Source: a virus (Duplodnaviria; Heunggongvirae; Uroviricota; Caudoviricetes). Taken from it: DNA of 64,000 nt. The notes under the pieces were generated by a model. The model ran no database searches, had not been told where the DNA came from, and worked only from the letters and a program-made list of their open reading frames with translations. Where the stretch lies: IMG/VR virus record IMGVR_UViG_3300008110_000029, one strand, 5' to 3'. Numbering within the stretch: the first letter of the stretch is position 1; the number at the start of each line of letters is the position of its first letter. Below are positions 42,189 through 61,809 of this stretch, in pieces. The translations under genes were made by a program, and so were the position numbers.

Positions 42189-43130
42189 ATGAAGCGTATC
42201 TTAATTACAGGGGCGGCCGGGTTCTTGGGTAGAAATTTAACCCATTATCTCAAAGACAAGTACGAATTAGTTTTAGTAGACCAAGACCCAGAACACTGGA
42301 CTAACTTTCAGTTAGAACCGCATGACTCAAATATTAGAATTGAAGTAGCAGATCTTCACGAAGACCTGTTTATATATGTTGCTCTGTTGCAGGATGTAGA
42401 CGCTGTTATTCATTGTGCCAATAGAGCAAGAATTGATCCTAGCTGGTTAGAGTATCAACAATATTATCAAACTAACATTGGCGACACTCAAAAGTTTTTT
42501 CAATTGTGTCAAGAACACAATATTAAAAAGTTTATCTATATCAGTTCTAGTTCAGTCTATGGTAACAATGGACAAGAAATACAAACAGAAGATGGTCAGT
42601 TAAATCCCAGCAGTCCATACGCAGTCAGCAAATTAGCAGCAGAATGGGCACTTCGTGTTCAAAGTCAAAAGGCATGGATAACTGAATTAATTATTGCAAG
42701 ACCATTTACCATGTATGGTGCATATATGGATTACAGTGACCGTGCTTTAATGATACCAAGATACATGAAGTCTTTGGTAGATGGACATCCTTTATTTTTA
42801 CACGGTGATGGTGCCCAACGTAGAGACTTTGTTCATGCATCTGATGCAGTTCAAGCTATAGAACTGTTAATAGAAAAAGGACAGCGCGATGAGATTTATA
42901 ATATTGGATCAGGAACATCGACAAGTGTTAAAGAAATAGCAGATGTTGTAAGCATGAAACAGATTAAGGTTCCTGATAGATTAGGACAGGTCAAGTCTAC
43001 TCTAGCAGATATATCAAAGTTACAGCAGTTAGGTTATGTACCAAAAGTAAATGTAATTAATTGGATTACCAATCAAGTTGAACAATTTAACAAAAGGAAA
43101 CAAAATGAGTCTAGTACCAGTAGTAGTTGA
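42189..43130 (+). CDS. NAD-dependent epimerase/dehydratase (extended SDR)
   Basis: [25 protein letters not shown]. Confidence 0.92.
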
Positions 43131-43695
43131 GTCTACCAGCAAAGGTGAGCGTGCCTATGATATCTATAGTCGTTTGCTCAAAGAGCGTATTGTCATGCTC
43201 AACGGCCCAGTTGAAGACATGATGAGTAATTTAATTGTAGCTCAAATATTATTCTTAGAATCGGAAGATCCTAAGAAAGAAATCAATCTTTTTATTAACA
43301 GTCCCGGAGGAGTTGTAACAGCAGGCATGGCTATCTACGATGTTATGCAATTTGTTAAATGCGATATTGCTACCTATGTTATGGGACAGGCCTGTTCAAT
43401 GGGTAGTTTGTTAGCACAGTCAGGAGCACCGGGTAAACGTTTTATGTTACCTAATGCTCGTCATATGATTCATCAACCTTCGGGAGGTGCAAGAGGTCAA
43501 GCCACTGACATGCAGATTCAAGTTGAAGAAATCTTAAAGATGAAAAAAGAACTTACTGGAATCTATGTTAAACATAACAGCAAAGGCAAAACATTTGAAC
43601 AGCTAACAGCTGACATGGAACGTGATAAGTTTATGTCAGCACAAGAAGCTCTTGACTACGGATTAATTGATAAGATTATTGATAAACGTCCTTAA
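43105..43695 (+). CDS. clpP: ATP-dependent Clp protease proteolytic subunit (start MSLVPV)
   Basis: [30 protein letters not shown] and RDKFMS, so the Ser-His-Asp triad is intact. Confidence 0.95.
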
Positions 43696-44869
43696 GAGCA
43701 GTTATCAAATTACTCATCATTGAGTCATCATGAAACGGAGTAGGTGCGAAACGTAACCGCTCCGTTCCCACATCAACCGTAGGATAGTTAATGGCCTGCA
43801 CATAAATGTTAAATTCATCTAACAATTTATCACTCATTTTTTTAGCACGTTTAGCATCACCAACTAACAACGGAACAATATGAGTAGTAGAGCAGGTCAT
43901 TAAGGGCAGTTCATTTTCTTTAAACAGTTGTTTGAGTTTACCAGCTCTTTCTTGATGTTTAACACGAACTTCGTTATGATCCTTAAGCCATTTAACTGCT
44001 GCCAGTGCACCTGCACAGGCCACTGGCGACATTGAAGTTGTAAAGATAAATCCTGCTGCCACTGAACGAATAGCATCAACGACATCAGCATCGGCAGCAA
44101 TATAACCACCTTGGACTCCAAACGCCTTGCCTAGGGTTCCATTGATTATATCAATCCTAGACTCTAGTCCGAGTTCTTCTACTTTTCCACCTCCGTGGGT
44201 TCCGTAGAGTCCTACCGCATGTACTTCGTCGATGTAAGTGATAGCATTGTATTTGTCTGCTAGGTCACAAATCTCTTTAATCAGTCCAACGTCGCCATCC
44301 ATTGAGTAAACTGATTCAAACACAATACAGGGTATCTGTCCTGATATGGTTACATTGGCTAACTTATCTTCTAGGTCTTGTAGATCATTGTGTTTGAAAA
44401 TACTCTTGCTGGCTTTGCTGTGACTAATACCTACAATTAAACTGTTATGATTATTAGCATCACTGATAAAATGTATGTTAGGAATAATCTTTGATAATGC
44501 TATCAAAGTCCATTCGTTGGCCACATAAGCTGAGCTGAACAATAACGCTTTACTCTTATTATGCAGCATGGCTAGTTCATGTTCCAAGGCCACATGATAG
44601 TGACTGTGTCCGCCAATATTGCGTGTACCTCCTGAACCTGCTCCTGTTTGATCTAAGGCTGTGTGCATAGCATCCAGAACTACTTTGTGTTGACCCATAC
44701 CTAGATAATCGTTTGAGCACCAATTTACTATGGTTTTGATATTATACGGGCCGTACCAAATTGCTCGTGGAAATTGCCCTCGTTCACGCACAATGTCGTT
44801 AAACACACGATATTTGCCCGTGTCCTTGAGATCTAGGATAAGTTTTTTAAAAGGTTCTTTGTTAATCAT
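43676..44869 (-). CDS. hemA: 5-aminolevulinate synthase (PLP-dependent, Shemin pathway)
   Basis: [53 protein letters not shown]. Confidence 0.92.
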
Positions 44870-44910: not shown

Positions 44911-45162
44911 ATGGATATTGTAAAATTAGACGTGCCTTTGTTTATAAGGCTTTTAGAACTAGCCCGTGAAGATGTAAAACAAGATGCAGATCTGCATGAT
45001 ATAGCAGAAGCAGTTATTAAACTAAGTCAGGACGGACCTGTTACAATGGCAGATTACGATACTATTGTATCCTTTATGAAAGGGCAGGGAGATCCAGCTC
45101 CGGAAAAACCTGCAGAATCTTTTGATGAATTAAACAGAATTAGAAAACTTGGAGGTCTATAA
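44911..45162 (+). CDS. small hypothetical (probable virion) protein
   Basis: TAAATA and GGAG upstream. Confidence 0.7.
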
Positions 45163-45584
45163 TGGCCAATATTACTATTTCTGTTCAGAGTTTTTTAAAT
45201 TCAGCTAACAATCTAAGTATTACTATTGACGATGGTCAAACTGTGGCTCAATTAAAAACTGCTGTCAATGCAGCAGAAGGTACCCCAGTAGACATAATGG
45301 ATTTATTTTTAAGTGGAACAAAATTAACTGACGCCACAACACTAGTGGCTAGTGGAATGATTGCAGGATCTTACATAAAGACTTCTAATAATCTAACTCA
45401 GACCGGTCTTTGGACCAAACAACAAAGACAGGATTACAAATTGCAAATTGCTGCTTTAAGAAGAGCAGCAACTAGTCGTCGTTCAACATACGATATTAAT
45501 GAATTACCGAATCCATATAACGGAAATGATACAGCTCCAGATGACGGAGCATCAACGCTGACCCTTGGTCGCCCTTGGAGTTAA
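45162..45584 (+). CDS. ubiquitin-like (beta-grasp) domain protein with C-terminal extension
   Basis: ungapped manual alignment to ubiquitin T22-S65 gives 13/44 identities. Confidence 0.7.
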   Translation: MANITISVQSFLNSANNLSITIDDGQTVAQLKTAVNAAEGTPVDIMDLFLSGTKLTDATTLVASGMIAGSYIKTSNNLTQTGLWTKQQRQDYKLQIAALRRAATSRRSTYDINELPNPYNGNDTAPDDGASTLTLGRPWS

Positions 45585-45587
45585 TTA

Positions 45588-46940
45588 ATGGGCGTTCGTA
45601 ATAAAAATTCAACAAACTACGTCCACGCAGACGAGCCCAATATTTTAAATCTCCATAAGGCTATGGAGTACAATGCTATTGGGCAACCTGTACTACGTGC
45701 CAACGTTAACCTAGTAGGCTCAGGCGAAGGTTCTGGAGTCAGTTCCAGCATAGACAGTAAAGGTCGTCTCAAAGTACAGACACAACAGACTATATTCTTC
45801 AACACATTCCAGTATGGTAAAGAAACTGATGTGTGGGATGAGAGCGCAGTCAACGGAGCCTCCGCAGTATTTGACACTTCATTTAGTCAAATACGCATGG
45901 AGGTGACAAATCAACTGGGATCCAAGGTCATACGACAAACCCGCAACGTTCAACGTTATACTCCAGGCCGCACACAGAGTGTGGCATTCGCTATTAGGTT
46001 AGATACACCAACAACTGGTATTCGTCGTAGGTTTGGTATGTTTGATGGCAATGATGGATTTTTCTTTGAGGACTGTGGAACTGTTGACCCTGACACAGGT
46101 GAGCCACAGTATGCCTGTGTGATTATCAACAGTGATGGTGCTACACCCACAGTGGAAAGAATATATCGTAAAGACTGGAACGGTGATAAACTAGATGGTA
46201 ATGGTCCCAGTGGTTTCACAGCAAATCCTCAAGCACAGCAGTTAGTCATGATGGACTACGAATGGTATGGTGCTGGACAGGTATCCTTTATGTTTGTGAT
46301 GAACGGCTTGCCCAGAGTTATACACACCTTTAACCACGGTAATAGACTACAGAGTCCTTGGGCGAAAACTCCATTCTTGCCCATCAGACTGGAGATAGAA
46401 AATCTCACTGGAGCCGCGGGCACACACTATCTATGGCAGGGCAGTAATAGTATTCTAGCAGAAGGATCGGTTGAAAAACTAGGCATCGCTGAAAGTATTC
46501 TAACACCGTTAACTGGTATCAACATGCCCTTGTCCAACACATTCTATCCCGTAGTCAGTATTAGAATAAAAAGCACAGCATTAACAGGCATTGTTATACC
46601 TACTTACTTCCAAGCAGGCACTGTAGACAACACTGACATTTACTTTAAACTTATACGCAATGCCACAGTAAACGGCACGTGGGTGGATCATCCAGATCCC
46701 AATGCTTTCACACAGTACAACTATACTTCAACGGGTGCTATCACAGACGGTGTTGAACTGTCAGCAGGTATCATTACAGCAGGCGGCGGTGCCGCACAGA
46801 TTAGAGTGGACACCGACACAGTTTATCAAATTGGTCGAAGTAATTTAGGCACAGTCAGCGATAACTTAACCTTGGCTATCGCTGCCAAGAATGCCAACAA
46901 GAATGCTGTGGCCACAATGACTTGGATTGAACAGAGATGA
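45588..46940 (+). CDS. probable virion structural protein (beta-sandwich rich)
   Basis: 450 aa, beta-rich, in a late operon. Confidence 0.6.
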   Translation: MGVRNKNSTNYVHADEPNILNLHKAMEYNAIGQPVLRANVNLVGSGEGSGVSSSIDSKGRLKVQTQQTIFFNTFQYGKETDVWDESAVNGASAVFDTSFSQIRMEVTNQLGSKVIRQTRNVQRYTPGRTQSVAFAIRLDTPTTGIRRRFGMFDGNDGFFFEDCGTVDPDTGEPQYACVIINSDGATPTVERIYRKDWNGDKLDGNGPSGFTANPQAQQLVMMDYEWYGAGQVSFMFVMNGLPRVIHTFNHGNRLQSPWAKTPFLPIRLEIENLTGAAGTHYLWQGSNSILAEGSVEKLGIAESILTPLTGINMPLSNTFYPVVSIRIKSTALTGIVIPTYFQAGTVDNTDIYFKLIRNATVNGTWVDHPDPNAFTQYNYTSTGAITDGVELSAGIITAGGGAAQIRVDTDTVYQIGRSNLGTVSDNLTLAIAAKNANKNAVATMTWIEQR

Positions 46941-47362
46941 TCTACAGAAAATATATAAACATCGTAGAAGCAGCCAACAAAGGTTGTCCTATTGCTACCT
47001 ACGACATAGACGTCAACCTAAAGAATCGTCAGAAGGCCATTGATGATTATCACTACGGCCCTGCTAATCCTGAGGAGCCAGAATCATATTGGAAGGATGC
47101 CGCAAAACGATGGGATATTACAGAAAAGACTGCTCGTACAATGCTGTGCGGTAACTGTGCGGCTTTTGATGTATCAGACAAAATGTGGACATGTATTGAA
47201 GATGGTATCAAAGGTGATGAAAAATCTGCAGATGCTATGGCCACAATCCACAAAGCAGACTTAGGCTACTGCAACTTCCTACACTTCAAATGCGCCGGAG
47301 ATCGTTCCTGCACAGCGTGGGTCACTGGCGGAGCAATAGATGACAAGGATCGTACAGAATGA
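46937..47362 (+). CDS. Cys-containing protein (HiPIP-like spacing)
   Basis: CGNC...C...C.....C..W. Confidence 0.6.
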   Translation: MIYRKYINIVEAANKGCPIATYDIDVNLKNRQKAIDDYHYGPANPEEPESYWKDAAKRWDITEKTARTMLCGNCAAFDVSDKMWTCIEDGIKGDEKSADAMATIHKADLGYCNFLHFKCAGDRSCTAWVTGGAIDDKDRTE

Positions 47363-47751
47363 AAATACAAGATGTAGTTTCTGAAGGCAAGTTTAGATCT
47401 AGAGACATCGAGGATTATAAACCCGATAATGAAAAACTCAACGATCTAAAAAGCAAATATCTTCCAGACTGGGAAATGTTAGATCATAAAACTCTACAAG
47501 CCAAATACGTTGCTAAGGATCACAGACATGCCTTATCATTTGTAAAATTCATTAATGGTCTTTCGGAACGTATGGATCATTTTGCAGAAGTTACACAGGA
47601 TGTTGCAGAAGTCACAGTAAAGACTACTACATTTGATGTCAAAGGGTTAACTGTATTAGATTTTAAACTGGCAATGAAAGTTGATCGTTACGCTGAAAAG
47701 AATGACATAGAACAAGTGCGTATGCAGGGCAACTTTGGTATGCATGAATAA
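47359..47751 (+). CDS. pterin-4a-carbinolamine dehydratase (PCD/PhhB)-like protein
   Basis: LPDWE, ALSFV, E..DH, GLT..DF.LA..VD pattern, catalytic His residues altered. Confidence 0.8.
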   Translation: MKIQDVVSEGKFRSRDIEDYKPDNEKLNDLKSKYLPDWEMLDHKTLQAKYVAKDHRHALSFVKFINGLSERMDHFAEVTQDVAEVTVKTTTFDVKGLTVLDFKLAMKVDRYAEKNDIEQVRMQGNFGMHE

Positions 47752-59574: not shown

Positions 59575-60249
59575 ATGACTTTACTAATCGAAAAATTTCA
59601 ATACCCCACCACCACAAGAACTACTATAAACGGTAAAAGACATTACGATGCCGGAGACGGCATTCCTGTTCCTAGTGTTACGACTATTCTTGATGCAACA
59701 AAAGATAAAACTTTTTTACATGAGTGGCGTAAACGTGTAGGCGAACAAGCAGCTCAACAGATTACTACAGAGGCTGCAGGGGTTGGGACCTCAATGCACA
59801 AGTATCTTGAAGATTATGTCAAAGGAGAACCGCTGACTCCTAAGAGCAATATGGTGCATCAACAAGGTTTTAAGATGGCGCATGTCATTATTGAAAAGGG
59901 CATGAGCAATGTCAGCGAAATGTGGGGCTCGGAAGTTAACTTATGTTATCCTGGGCTGTATGCTGGTACCACTGACGGCGTAGGAGTGTTTAACGGCAAC
60001 CCTGCAATCATTGACTTTAAACAGACCAATAAACCCAAGAAAGAAGAGTGGGTAGAAGACTACTATCTACAACTAGTGGCCTACGCAATGGCTCACAACG
60101 AGATGCACGGAACAGACATAAAGTACGCACATATCTTGATGTGCAGCAGAGAGCTTCAATATCAACAGTTTGATATTACTCCTGACACATTTAACAAGTG
60201 GTCTGACAAGTGGTTAGAGCGGGTTCAGCAATACTATGACTCTAGATAA
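59575..60249 (+). CDS. PD-(D/E)XK exonuclease (MGME1/lambda-exo-like)
   Basis: PSVTTIL, GTSMH, EV.L, YAGTTD, IIDFKQ, QLVAY. Confidence 0.88.
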   Translation: MTLLIEKFQYPTTTRTTINGKRHYDAGDGIPVPSVTTILDATKDKTFLHEWRKRVGEQAAQQITTEAAGVGTSMHKYLEDYVKGEPLTPKSNMVHQQGFKMAHVIIEKGMSNVSEMWGSEVNLCYPGLYAGTTDGVGVFNGNPAIIDFKQTNKPKKEEWVEDYYLQLVAYAMAHNEMHGTDIKYAHILMCSRELQYQQFDITPDTFNKWSDKWLERVQQYYDSR

Positions 60250-60273
60250 ATACCCTAACAAGGGTATATTTCT

Positions 60274-61809
60274 ATGGCCGTAGTCCAAATAAGCAAAATA
60301 CAAATCCGTAAAGGAAAAAAGTTACAAACTGGGATTCCTCAGTTAAGTGGCGGTGAGTTCGCCTGGGCAGTTGATACACAAGAACTATACATAGGTAATG
60401 GTTCCGTGTTCGAAGGAGCTCCTTTAGTTGGTAATACTAAAATTTTAACAGAATACGATAATATTTTAGATCTTGCTAGAGGTTATAAATTTGCTTCCGG
60501 AAATCCTAGTATAACTAGAAGTGTATCTCGTTCAATACAATCAAAATTAGATGAATATGTAAGTGTGTTTGATTATGGTGCCAAGGGTGATGGCACTACA
60601 AATGATACTGTTGCATTTCAAAGAGCATTAGATGATCTTTTTTTAAATGCAAATACAAATTTTAAAAAAGCATTATTCATTCCGTCTGGAAATTATCTAA
60701 TTTCTTCAGAATTACGTATTCCTAGTAGTGCAGTTATTATTGGAGACGGCCAGAATAATACAACTCTTCTCATGAATGCTAGTACTGTAACTTTTAAAAC
60801 TTCTAGTAATTCAACTTTAGGAAATTTCACAGGGTCTAATAGGCCAGAAAATATTTCTTTATCAAATTTTAAATTTTATTTTACAAGTGGATCTTTAAAT
60901 TTAACAGGCGTAAAAAATGCAAAGTTTGATAATATAATTTTTGAATCAACATATTCATTAGGCAACAGTACTGAAACTTCAATGGTTAACTGGTCTAATG
61001 ACATTGACAGCACTAAAGTTACTGATATTTTCTTTTCTAATTGTAAATTTACCAAAGGATATATTGCAGTATCTGCAATATTTTCATCGGTACTAACTAC
61101 CAGTGTAAATTTTAATAATTGTAATTTTTATATATGTGGTAAAGGAATTTATTTACAAGGGCAAGCCAATCAAAGCAATCAGTGGTCAATTCAAAATTCT
61201 CAGTTTGAATTAATCTTCAATCAAGCCATACATGTAACCAACGGTTACAATATGTCTGTGCAAAATAGTAAATTTTTAATTTGTGCAAATGGATTGAATG
61301 ATGCAGCTACTCCAACTTTACCTGTTATATCATTTTCTCAAACAAAAAATAACACAGTCATTGATTGTTATTTTGATAGAACACAAGAAGCCGGAGTATC
61401 AAATACATCATCTAAACCGGGATGGCCAGAAGTTCAGAATAGTTCAAAAACTACAATTATTAATAATGTTGTTACTGACATTGCACTGTCTGATGGTCAA
61501 AGAACTTTAGCAGTATTTTCTGCGTTTAATAAATTTATAAAAATTGATTATGTATTAACTTTAGGAACAAGTATTAGAAAAGGTATATTAACTCTAATAG
61601 TTGATGGACTCAGTCCTAGTACTATATCGTTAACTGACGAATTTAATTTTACATCGGGGGTAACAGTCATGACAGGATTTGAATTTGGAACAAACGTATT
61701 TGATAATAATTTAGATTCTGGGATTGATACTATTCAGTTATGGTATAGAAATCCAATTGCCAATCAATCCACTGGCACTATTTCTTATTTCATAACATAC
61801 GGTGTTTAA
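60274..61809 (+). CDS. tail spike/fibre protein with pectin-lyase-like beta-helix
   Basis: N-terminal IQIRKG...GEFAWAVDTQELYIG, SVFDYGAKGDGTTNDT.AFQRAL, FIPSGNY. Confidence 0.85.
   Translation: MAVVQISKIQIRKGKKLQTGIPQLSGGEFAWAVDTQELYIGNGSVFEGAPLVGNTKILTEYDNILDLARGYKFASGNPSITRSVSRSIQSKLDEYVSVFDYGAKGDGTTNDTVAFQRALDDLFLNANTNFKKALFIPSGNYLISSELRIPSSAVIIGDGQNNTTLLMNASTVTFKTSSNSTLGNFTGSNRPENISLSNFKFYFTSGSLNLTGVKNAKFDNIIFESTYSLGNSTETSMVNWSNDIDSTKVTDIFFSNCKFTKGYIAVSAIFSSVLTTSVNFNNCNFYICGKGIYLQGQANQSNQWSIQNSQFELIFNQAIHVTNGYNMSVQNSKFLICANGLNDAATPTLPVISFSQTKNNTVIDCYFDRTQEAGVSNTSSKPGWPEVQNSSKTTIINNVVTDIALSDGQRTLAVFSAFNKFIKIDYVLTLGTSIRKGILTLIVDGLSPSTISLTDEFNFTSGVTVMTGFEFGTNVFDNNLDSGIDTIQLWYRNPIANQSTGTISYFITYGV

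Follow-up and report, generated by a model that had tools for sequence, protein, structure and literature searches.

How a ubiquitin domain comes to lie in the genome of a tailed phage of bacteria, and what such a domain would do there, is the question raised by an open reading frame (ORF) at positions 45162-45584 of the DNA stretch analysed here (the window, 64,000 nucleotides), whose product we call P0001. The original prediction, made from the letters of the sequence, had placed this ORF in a bacteriophage, and the window bears this out with genes for a primase, a DnaB-type helicase, a ligase, a ribonucleotide reductase, a tailspike-like pectate lyase and virion proteins. The stretch occurs in lake and freshwater metagenomes of 16 studies, and the exact P0001 protein is present on contigs of up to 260 kb. 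Three members of its family gave no tblastn match in 50,697 deposited phage genomes, and megablast of the region likewise returned no match.

Beta-grasp domains are already known from phage tail assembly (the TAPI proteins), a eukaryote-like ubiquitin from Bacteroides fragilis (BfUbb) and ubiquitin genes from viruses of eukaryotes. In the literature searched, we came upon no report of a tailed bacterial phage in which a eukaryotic-type ubiquitin domain is fused to a putative virion docking module. The docking module itself was not described there either; we call it helix-tail (HT), and it comprises P0001 residues 77-140. The parts of P0001 are as follows.

45162-45584, plus strand: the P0001 ORF, 140 aa.
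45162..45389, plus strand: ubiquitin-derived beta-grasp domain, residues 1-76, also called the cap below (assigned from PF00240, AF2, Foldseek and likeness to the relative L064).
45390..45473, plus strand: linker and basic helix, residues 77-104 (helix 86-104), the first half of HT.
45474..45584, plus strand: conserved tail, residues 105-140, with the stop codon, the second half of HT.

A ubiquitin fold at the N terminus of P0001

Three independent measures place the ubiquitin likeness of P0001 far beyond chance. PF00240 matches residues 13-71 with 28.0 bits and an E-value of 1.9e-6, above its curated gathering score of 25.4 bits. A profile of 44 family members (A1), which is also the alignment behind the AF2 model of P0001, was compared with PDB sequences and found single ubiquitin chains at about 29 bits (E about 1e-5) and a 'viral ubiquitin' (6kna) at E 3.4e-7. 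The AF2 model has a pLDDT of at least 90 for residues 1-100, and its top PDB matches in Foldseek are ubiquitin and NEDD8, with target-normalised TM-scores of 0.85-0.92 and an rmsd of 0.9-1.1 Å across 73 residues; for ubiquitin itself the values are 0.91 and 1.0 Å over 73 residues. P0001 is a member of PF00240 on both its sequence score and its superposable beta-grasp fold.

These measures bear out the ubiquitin domain that had been read into this ORF from a gap-free alignment of residues 27-70 with ubiquitin T22-S65. Recounting that alignment gave the same 13 identities in 44 positions, and structure prediction with a Foldseek search, which had been put forward as the check, returned a beta-grasp fold nearest to ubiquitin and NEDD8.

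Relationship to eukaryotic ubiquitin

We compared 130 relatives in IMG/VR. One member of the family, L064, is a 130-aa protein encoded at 609-1001 of a 19.7-kb IMG/VR contig, begins with MQIFVQS, and matches ubiquitin with 67.5 bits (E 1.3e-17) and PF00240 with 62.8 bits. It is identical to ubiquitin 1-66 at 38 of 66 positions (57.6%) and to the P0001 domain at 36%, against a median identity to ubiquitin of 21.5% in the rest of the family. L064 and the family have in common an invariant V-Q-S, a two-residue insertion in the first loop and the tail, and L064 adjoins the same aminolevulinate-synthase-like gene as is found in the window; its capped gene stands alone there, without the small upstream gene and without the lectin-like neighbour.

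Because L064 combines roughly 58% identity to ubiquitin with the V-Q-S, the insertion and the tail of the family, we take the family to be of eukaryotic ubiquitin descent. On these sequence grounds it is a diverged offshoot of eukaryotic-type ubiquitin and not of a ThiS/MoaD-type or Bil-type bacterial ubiquitin-like protein (Ubl). L064 itself may be an orthologue that has evolved slowly, or it may stem from a second capture of ubiquitin. The domain had been called 'eukaryote-like'; with 57.6% identity between L064 and ubiquitin 1-66 this was right, and holds more strongly than was claimed. The descent is from eukaryotic ubiquitin and not from partners of the bacterial Bil/Bub or CBASS systems, which the original prediction had cited as background.

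Loss of conjugation features and selection on the gene

Residue conservation was tallied over 185 distinct family sequences. The core positions I3, V5, V/I17, V/I23, L26, I30, L43, L50, T55, L56 and I61 are kept, and the structural Lys27 is retained in 97% as the sole survivor of the seven lysines, K6 being always Gln and K11, K29, K33, K48 and K63 all gone. Arg42 is changed to Asp in 63% of the sequences, and the position of ubiquitin Ile44 is occupied by V, F, Y or S. The LRLRGG C terminus is replaced in the family: in P0001 the domain passes directly into a linker at residues 71-76 (YIKTSN), after which 64 residues follow, and a search of the whole protein found no Gly-Gly, as was also the case across the family. 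The surfaces read by E1s, DUBs and ubiquitin receptors (LRLRGG, Arg42 and the Ile44 patch) are absent or unconserved, and the cap has lost all that conjugation or recognition by ubiquitin enzymes would require.

The genes around P0001 agree. A Pfam scan of the 102 non-overlapping window ORFs of at least 70 aa (E <= 1e-5, family lists complete) detected no ThiF/E1, no UQ_con or prokaryotic E2 and no JAB. ThiF and Prok-JAB were also absent from five related records (two complete genomes of about 360 kb and three partial ones), each of which has at most one ubiquitin domain; UQ_con (E2) was not found in the relatives, a result that counts weakly since the search had no positive control. P0001 accordingly has neither the C-terminal Gly, nor the nearby E1, E2 or peptidase, nor the recognition surfaces of a conjugatable Ubl. 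The original prediction had noted the missing terminal Gly-Gly, a tail of about 65 residues and the lack of an E1, E2 or JAB gene in the window, and these statements hold, the tail after the domain measuring 64 residues.

Purifying selection acts on both halves of the gene. Over 15 pairs, in which synonymous sites are largely saturated, the cap has a median omega of about 0.13 and HT one of about 0.10, and the least saturated pair gives 0.05 and 0.04, respectively.

The helix-tail module

Most of the invariant positions of the family fall in P0001 residues 77-140. The invariant residues are Q90, K93, L94 and R101 in the helix and L115, P116, Y119, L133, R137, P138 and W139 in the tail, which carries the motif LPxxY..GN...GL..GRPW. 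The helix is modelled by AF2 with a pLDDT as high as that of the cap, so the two may form one unit, and the tail is predicted to be disordered in the monomer (pLDDT about 55). HT has no match in Pfam or among the PHROGs, its profile finds nothing among PDB sequences at E <= 10, and a search of the ESM Atlas with the tail gave no usable match.

The profile of HT alone (A3), run against 1.84 billion cluster representatives, matched 393 clusters at E <= 1e-3, of which 239 remain at E <= 1e-10. Among the best 150 of these 393, HT stands at the N terminus without a cap in 89 (61 with a C-terminal extension, 28 without), is preceded by a ubiquitin cap in 47 (27 with an extension, 20 without) and follows some other N-terminal region in 14; the cap is thus missing from about 60% of the best 150 clusters. 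The conserved core of the family is the helix and tail, with the ubiquitin domain optional, and genes of only 67 aa that encode nothing but HT (L071 and L085, for example) share the three-gene context of the window gene.

Many relatives attach sugar-binding domains C-terminal to GRPW. Pfam identifies LamG_3, a ConA-like lectin domain, in 35 of the 75 long members, PA14/GLEYA in 16 and ILEI in seven; a sialidase N-terminal lectin, SPRY, Calx-beta, Toxin_R_bind_N and a glycine-rich fibre domain also occur in these 75. The C-terminal regions of P0196 and P0254 reach 600-700 residues with fibre-like repeats. Modular phage fibres and decoration proteins (T4 Hoc-type display, for example) combine a conserved anchor at the N terminus with exchangeable glycan-binding domains at the C terminus, and the HT family resembles them in placing LamG, PA14, ILEI or fibre-like domains interchangeably behind a short conserved anchor. 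It differs from them in the lack of any Pfam, PHROG or PDB match to HT and in the ubiquitin cap before the anchor, an arrangement not found in the literature searched.

Two variations on the common plan were seen. In the 302-aa P0220, an inserted LamG-like domain separates the helix (residues 6-27) from the LPxxY...GRPW tail (residues 267-302); the two are therefore sub-motifs that can be parted and that probably meet in space. In P0193, P0200, P0236 and P0251, a different N-terminal region of about 90 residues, which Pfam does not recognise, ends in a ubiquitin-like 'TL..LGI..G' strand and may be an extremely diverged or an alternative cap.

The lectin-like neighbour

The gene that follows P0001 lies at 45588-46940, begins 4 nt past the stop codon of the P0001 gene, is translationally coupled to that gene, and encodes 450 aa in two parts.

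45588..45752, plus strand: N-terminal extension, residues 1-55, with the conserved motif N-S/T-T-x-Y-x-H-x-x-E-x-N-L-L-N-L-H-K-A-M-E-Y...G-x-P-x-x-R and disordered in AF2.
45753..46940, plus strand: body, matching phrog_1645, with a ConA-like/GH16-like jelly roll and a second beta-sandwich.

Residues 39-449 align with positions 34-439 of the 440 in the phrog_1645 profile (E 1.5e-130), which is labelled 'virion structural protein', an annotation borne by the cyanophage homologues of the neighbour. The protein shares about 50% identity with proteins of Synechococcus myophages, and 58% with one of a 55-kb uncultured phage. Its AF2 model (mean pLDDT 78.5) contains a ConA-like/GH16-like jelly roll at residues 56-294, which VIA-align matches to GH16 glucanases and legume-type lectins with Z-scores of 15-18, and a second beta-sandwich at residues 295-450. 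When the whole chain was compared by Foldseek, the matches took in mycobacteriophage TM4 gp23, in its receptor-binding domain, as well as binding domains of clostridial neurotoxins. An 'E1 FCCH domain' lead from the Atlas, with a score of 0.78 that is below the reliable range, was dropped.

A phrog_1645 homologue is the next gene after HT in 42 of 64 distinct HT genes (at -10 to +40 nt), and all 42 of these homologues carry the N-terminal extension, 36 with the motif up to its E-Y (N-S/T-T-x-Y-x-H-x-x-E-x-N-L-L-N-L-H-K-A-M-E-Y) and six with a second variant. We have seen the extension only in homologues that follow an HT gene; for the homologues in 165 deposited phages, the alignment begins only at residue 60 among the matches listed, and the three family members used as queries found no HT gene in that collection. 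The small ORF that precedes the S-CAM9 homologue proved unrelated to the P0001 family (hhalign probability 0.1%). This co-occurrence of the extension and HT is our main argument, an indirect one, that the two touch. No fusion of HT to the phrog_1645 body was found among 73 long representatives, and a prediction of the complex of P0001 with the 450-aa neighbour, with each chain given its own alignment, returned 'no answer' (score 0.00), which weighs neither for nor against contact.

Genomic context of the capped gene

The immediate surroundings of the pair in the window are these.

43078-43695, plus strand: ClpP protease (E 3e-80).
43676-44869, minus strand: 5-aminolevulinate-synthase-like aminotransferase (PF00155, E 1e-60).
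44911..45162, plus strand: small ORF of 83 aa upstream of P0001, a truncated representative of a conserved family of small proteins.
47359-47751, plus strand: pterin-4a-carbinolamine dehydratase (E 4e-18).

A nuclease gene is also near, and the pair sits among metabolic genes and not in a classical structural block. The stop codon of the small upstream ORF overlaps the P0001 start codon (TAATG). Proteins of this small family (75-130 aa), which has no match in Pfam or PHROG, precede the HT gene in most loci (upstream ORFs of L003-L086) and share the motifs '(D/E)ELxR(I/M)KxLxGL' or 'ELxRMKQIAGL' and, at the C terminus, 'GGGVNGPKHPADIR..S.SMYP..Q'. The 83-aa copy in the window ends right after the first motif and is without the 'GGGVNGPKHPADIR..S.SMYP' part. 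The original prediction had spoken of a late operon; neither a sigma-70 promoter scan nor a look at the 42-nt spacer upstream revealed a convincing promoter, late or other.

Beyond the pairs with phrog_1645, the contexts of HT genes are structural too, with fibre genes and terminase as neighbours. In L053 and its relatives the capped gene lies between a tail-fibre-like protein of 450-1300 residues and another fibre-like protein, and in L021 and L054-L059 it directly precedes the terminase large subunit.

Discussion

We tend to read P0001 as an anchor or adaptor for a virion adhesin, capped by the ubiquitin domain, and regard this as the probable explanation of this locus. HT would be a docking module whose tail probably folds only upon binding or oligomerisation, and it would anchor sugar-binding adhesin domains to the particle or link them together. 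In other phages the adhesin domains would be fused behind GRPW, and in the window phage the adhesin would be supplied by the coupled ConA-like protein, through its HT-specific N-terminal extension. The ubiquitin-derived domain would have been fused ahead of HT with the ubiquitin core kept, as a compact and stable N-terminal unit that might aid folding or solubility, act as a spacer or, through the invariant V-Q-S, offer an extra contact surface. We infer from this arrangement that P0001 is present in the virion, binds the lectin-like protein physically and has a role in adhesion. Weighing against this reading are the absence of an HT-phrog_1645 fusion from the 73 long representatives, the solitary capped gene of L064 and the metabolic surroundings of the pair in the window. 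Of the two readings that the original prediction had offered, the recruitment of a beta-grasp module into the virion fits the lectin-like neighbour, the LamG, PA14 and ILEI fusions and the tail-fibre and terminase contexts. A non-conjugatable decoy of host E1, E2 or DUB enzymes finds no support, given that the cap is dispensable in most of the family and that LRLRGG, Arg42 and the Ile44 patch are absent or unconserved.

The main rival is an assembly factor like gpI, one that helps the lectin-like or fibre protein to fold or attach and is absent from the mature particle; we think this unlikely, while giving it real weight. Its model is TAPI, the lambda/T1 tail assembly protein I (PF06805) described by Iyer, Burroughs and Aravind in 2006 (PMC1779556), which is linked to morphogenesis, as P0001 would be, and shares with it an N-terminal beta-grasp domain, a linker, a small C-terminal region and a neighbour of the host-specificity type (PMC1779556). 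The translational coupling of P0001 to its neighbour and a tail that AF2 predicts to be disordered in isolation would both suit such a factor. TAPI, however, has a ThiS/MoaD-type beta-grasp with a conserved C-terminal glycine and a JAB + NlpC/P60 partner, gpK (PMC1779556), whereas P0001 is of the PF00240 type, ends in the unrelated HT module and is without the C-terminal glycine and a peptidase partner of the JAB/NlpC kind. PF06805 is not among the Pfam matches of P0001 at E <= 1, and P0001 is flanked by the small ORF and the ConA-like protein and not by gpK and gpJ. Many members are moreover fused to large lectin or fibre-like domains, which gives the family the look of a structural anchor and not of a transient chaperone.

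A part in counter-defence, with the cap blocking or misleading a Ubl-conjugation defence such as Bil, acting as a decoy or else as a cap that is 'pre-attached' to the adhesin by its genetic fusion, is improbable. Bil conjugates its Ubl to the central tail fibre of the phage, a receptor-binding structure (10.1101/2023.09.04.556158), and the cap sits on adhesin-like gear, is under purifying selection and keeps its V-Q-S invariant. The Ubls of Bil/Bub and type II CBASS, which share with P0001 the beta-grasp fold and a setting of phage-host conflict, have a C-terminal glycine and operon-encoded E1, E2 and DUB (10.1101/2023.09.04.556158; PMC10557695; PMC10097602); unlike them, P0001 has no C-terminal glycine and no E1/E2 (Cap2-like) or JAB/DUB gene in its operon. 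The cap itself resembles eukaryotic ubiquitin and not the bacterial Ubls, is without the C-terminal tail, Arg42 and Ile44 patch, and is lacking in some 60% of the best-matching members with the gene context unchanged. We would give equally little credence to an active ubiquitin mimic, displayed on the surface or injected, that shields the adhesin against Bil-type tagging or has an effect in protist grazers; the latter variant, in which the fate of particles or infected cells eaten by protists would be altered, comes from the eukaryotic descent of the domain and the lake-water origin of the DNA. Most improbable of all is a non-structural role in the cytoplasm, for instance as an adaptor that brings a client to the phage ClpP in the manner of ubiquitin-like degradation tags. 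The ClpP gene does lie 1.5 kb upstream, and in L006 a ClpA/B-like ATPase gene is found 4 kb upstream, but nearness to Clp genes is not conserved among the loci, a gene on the opposite strand parts ClpP from the cluster in the window, and the lectin fusions with the fibre and terminase contexts point outside the cytoplasm.

The capped protein also invites comparison with another ubiquitin of eukaryotic descent in a prokaryotic setting. BfUbb, the eukaryote-like ubiquitin of Bacteroides fragilis, is a free, secreted toxin of 76 residues whose target is a periplasmic PPIase (PMC5705921, PMC6194340, PMC11467351). Like the phage cap, it combines eukaryotic descent with a prokaryotic setting, has no terminal Gly-Gly and serves a use other than conjugation, and its reported 63% identity to ubiquitin is close to the 58% of L064. 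The phage cap differs in being fused to a docking module and in the low identity of most members (about 20%). P0001 itself, at 140 aa, carries the fused 64-residue module and has no N-terminal extension, and there is no room for a signal peptide since the beta-grasp starts at residue 3.

Set beside these systems, the family shows clearly that tailed phages of bacteria have captured a eukaryotic ubiquitin gene. The domain has shed its conjugation function, and purifying selection has maintained it in hundreds of phage lineages, where it serves as a building block. The family also brings to light an uncatalogued docking module, a helix with LPxxY...GRPW, that bears swappable lectin domains in uncultured phages of freshwater and other environments. 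If HT truly anchors adhesins, it could serve as a handle with which to predict or re-target host or glycan binding in a large uncultured phage group.

Other observations on the window

At 59575-61809 the window encodes an exonuclease (phrog_298) followed by a 511-aa pectate-lyase-like tailspike. In L053 (1344-7656) the same exonuclease precedes, in this order, a fibre-like protein of 1299 aa, the capped HT gene and another fibre-like protein. Comparison of these two exonuclease contexts suggests that, among related phages, the HT gene shifts from one fibre-gene setting to another.

Some Pfam matches in the leading half of the window (1-29536) are unusual for a phage. They comprise Bax1-I (inhibitor of apoptosis-promoting Bax1; E 1e-55), a carbamoyltransferase, a malonyl-CoA-decarboxylase-like domain, and a pair of a DUF2201 metallopeptidase and a VWA protein that is accompanied by a MoxR-like AAA ATPase.
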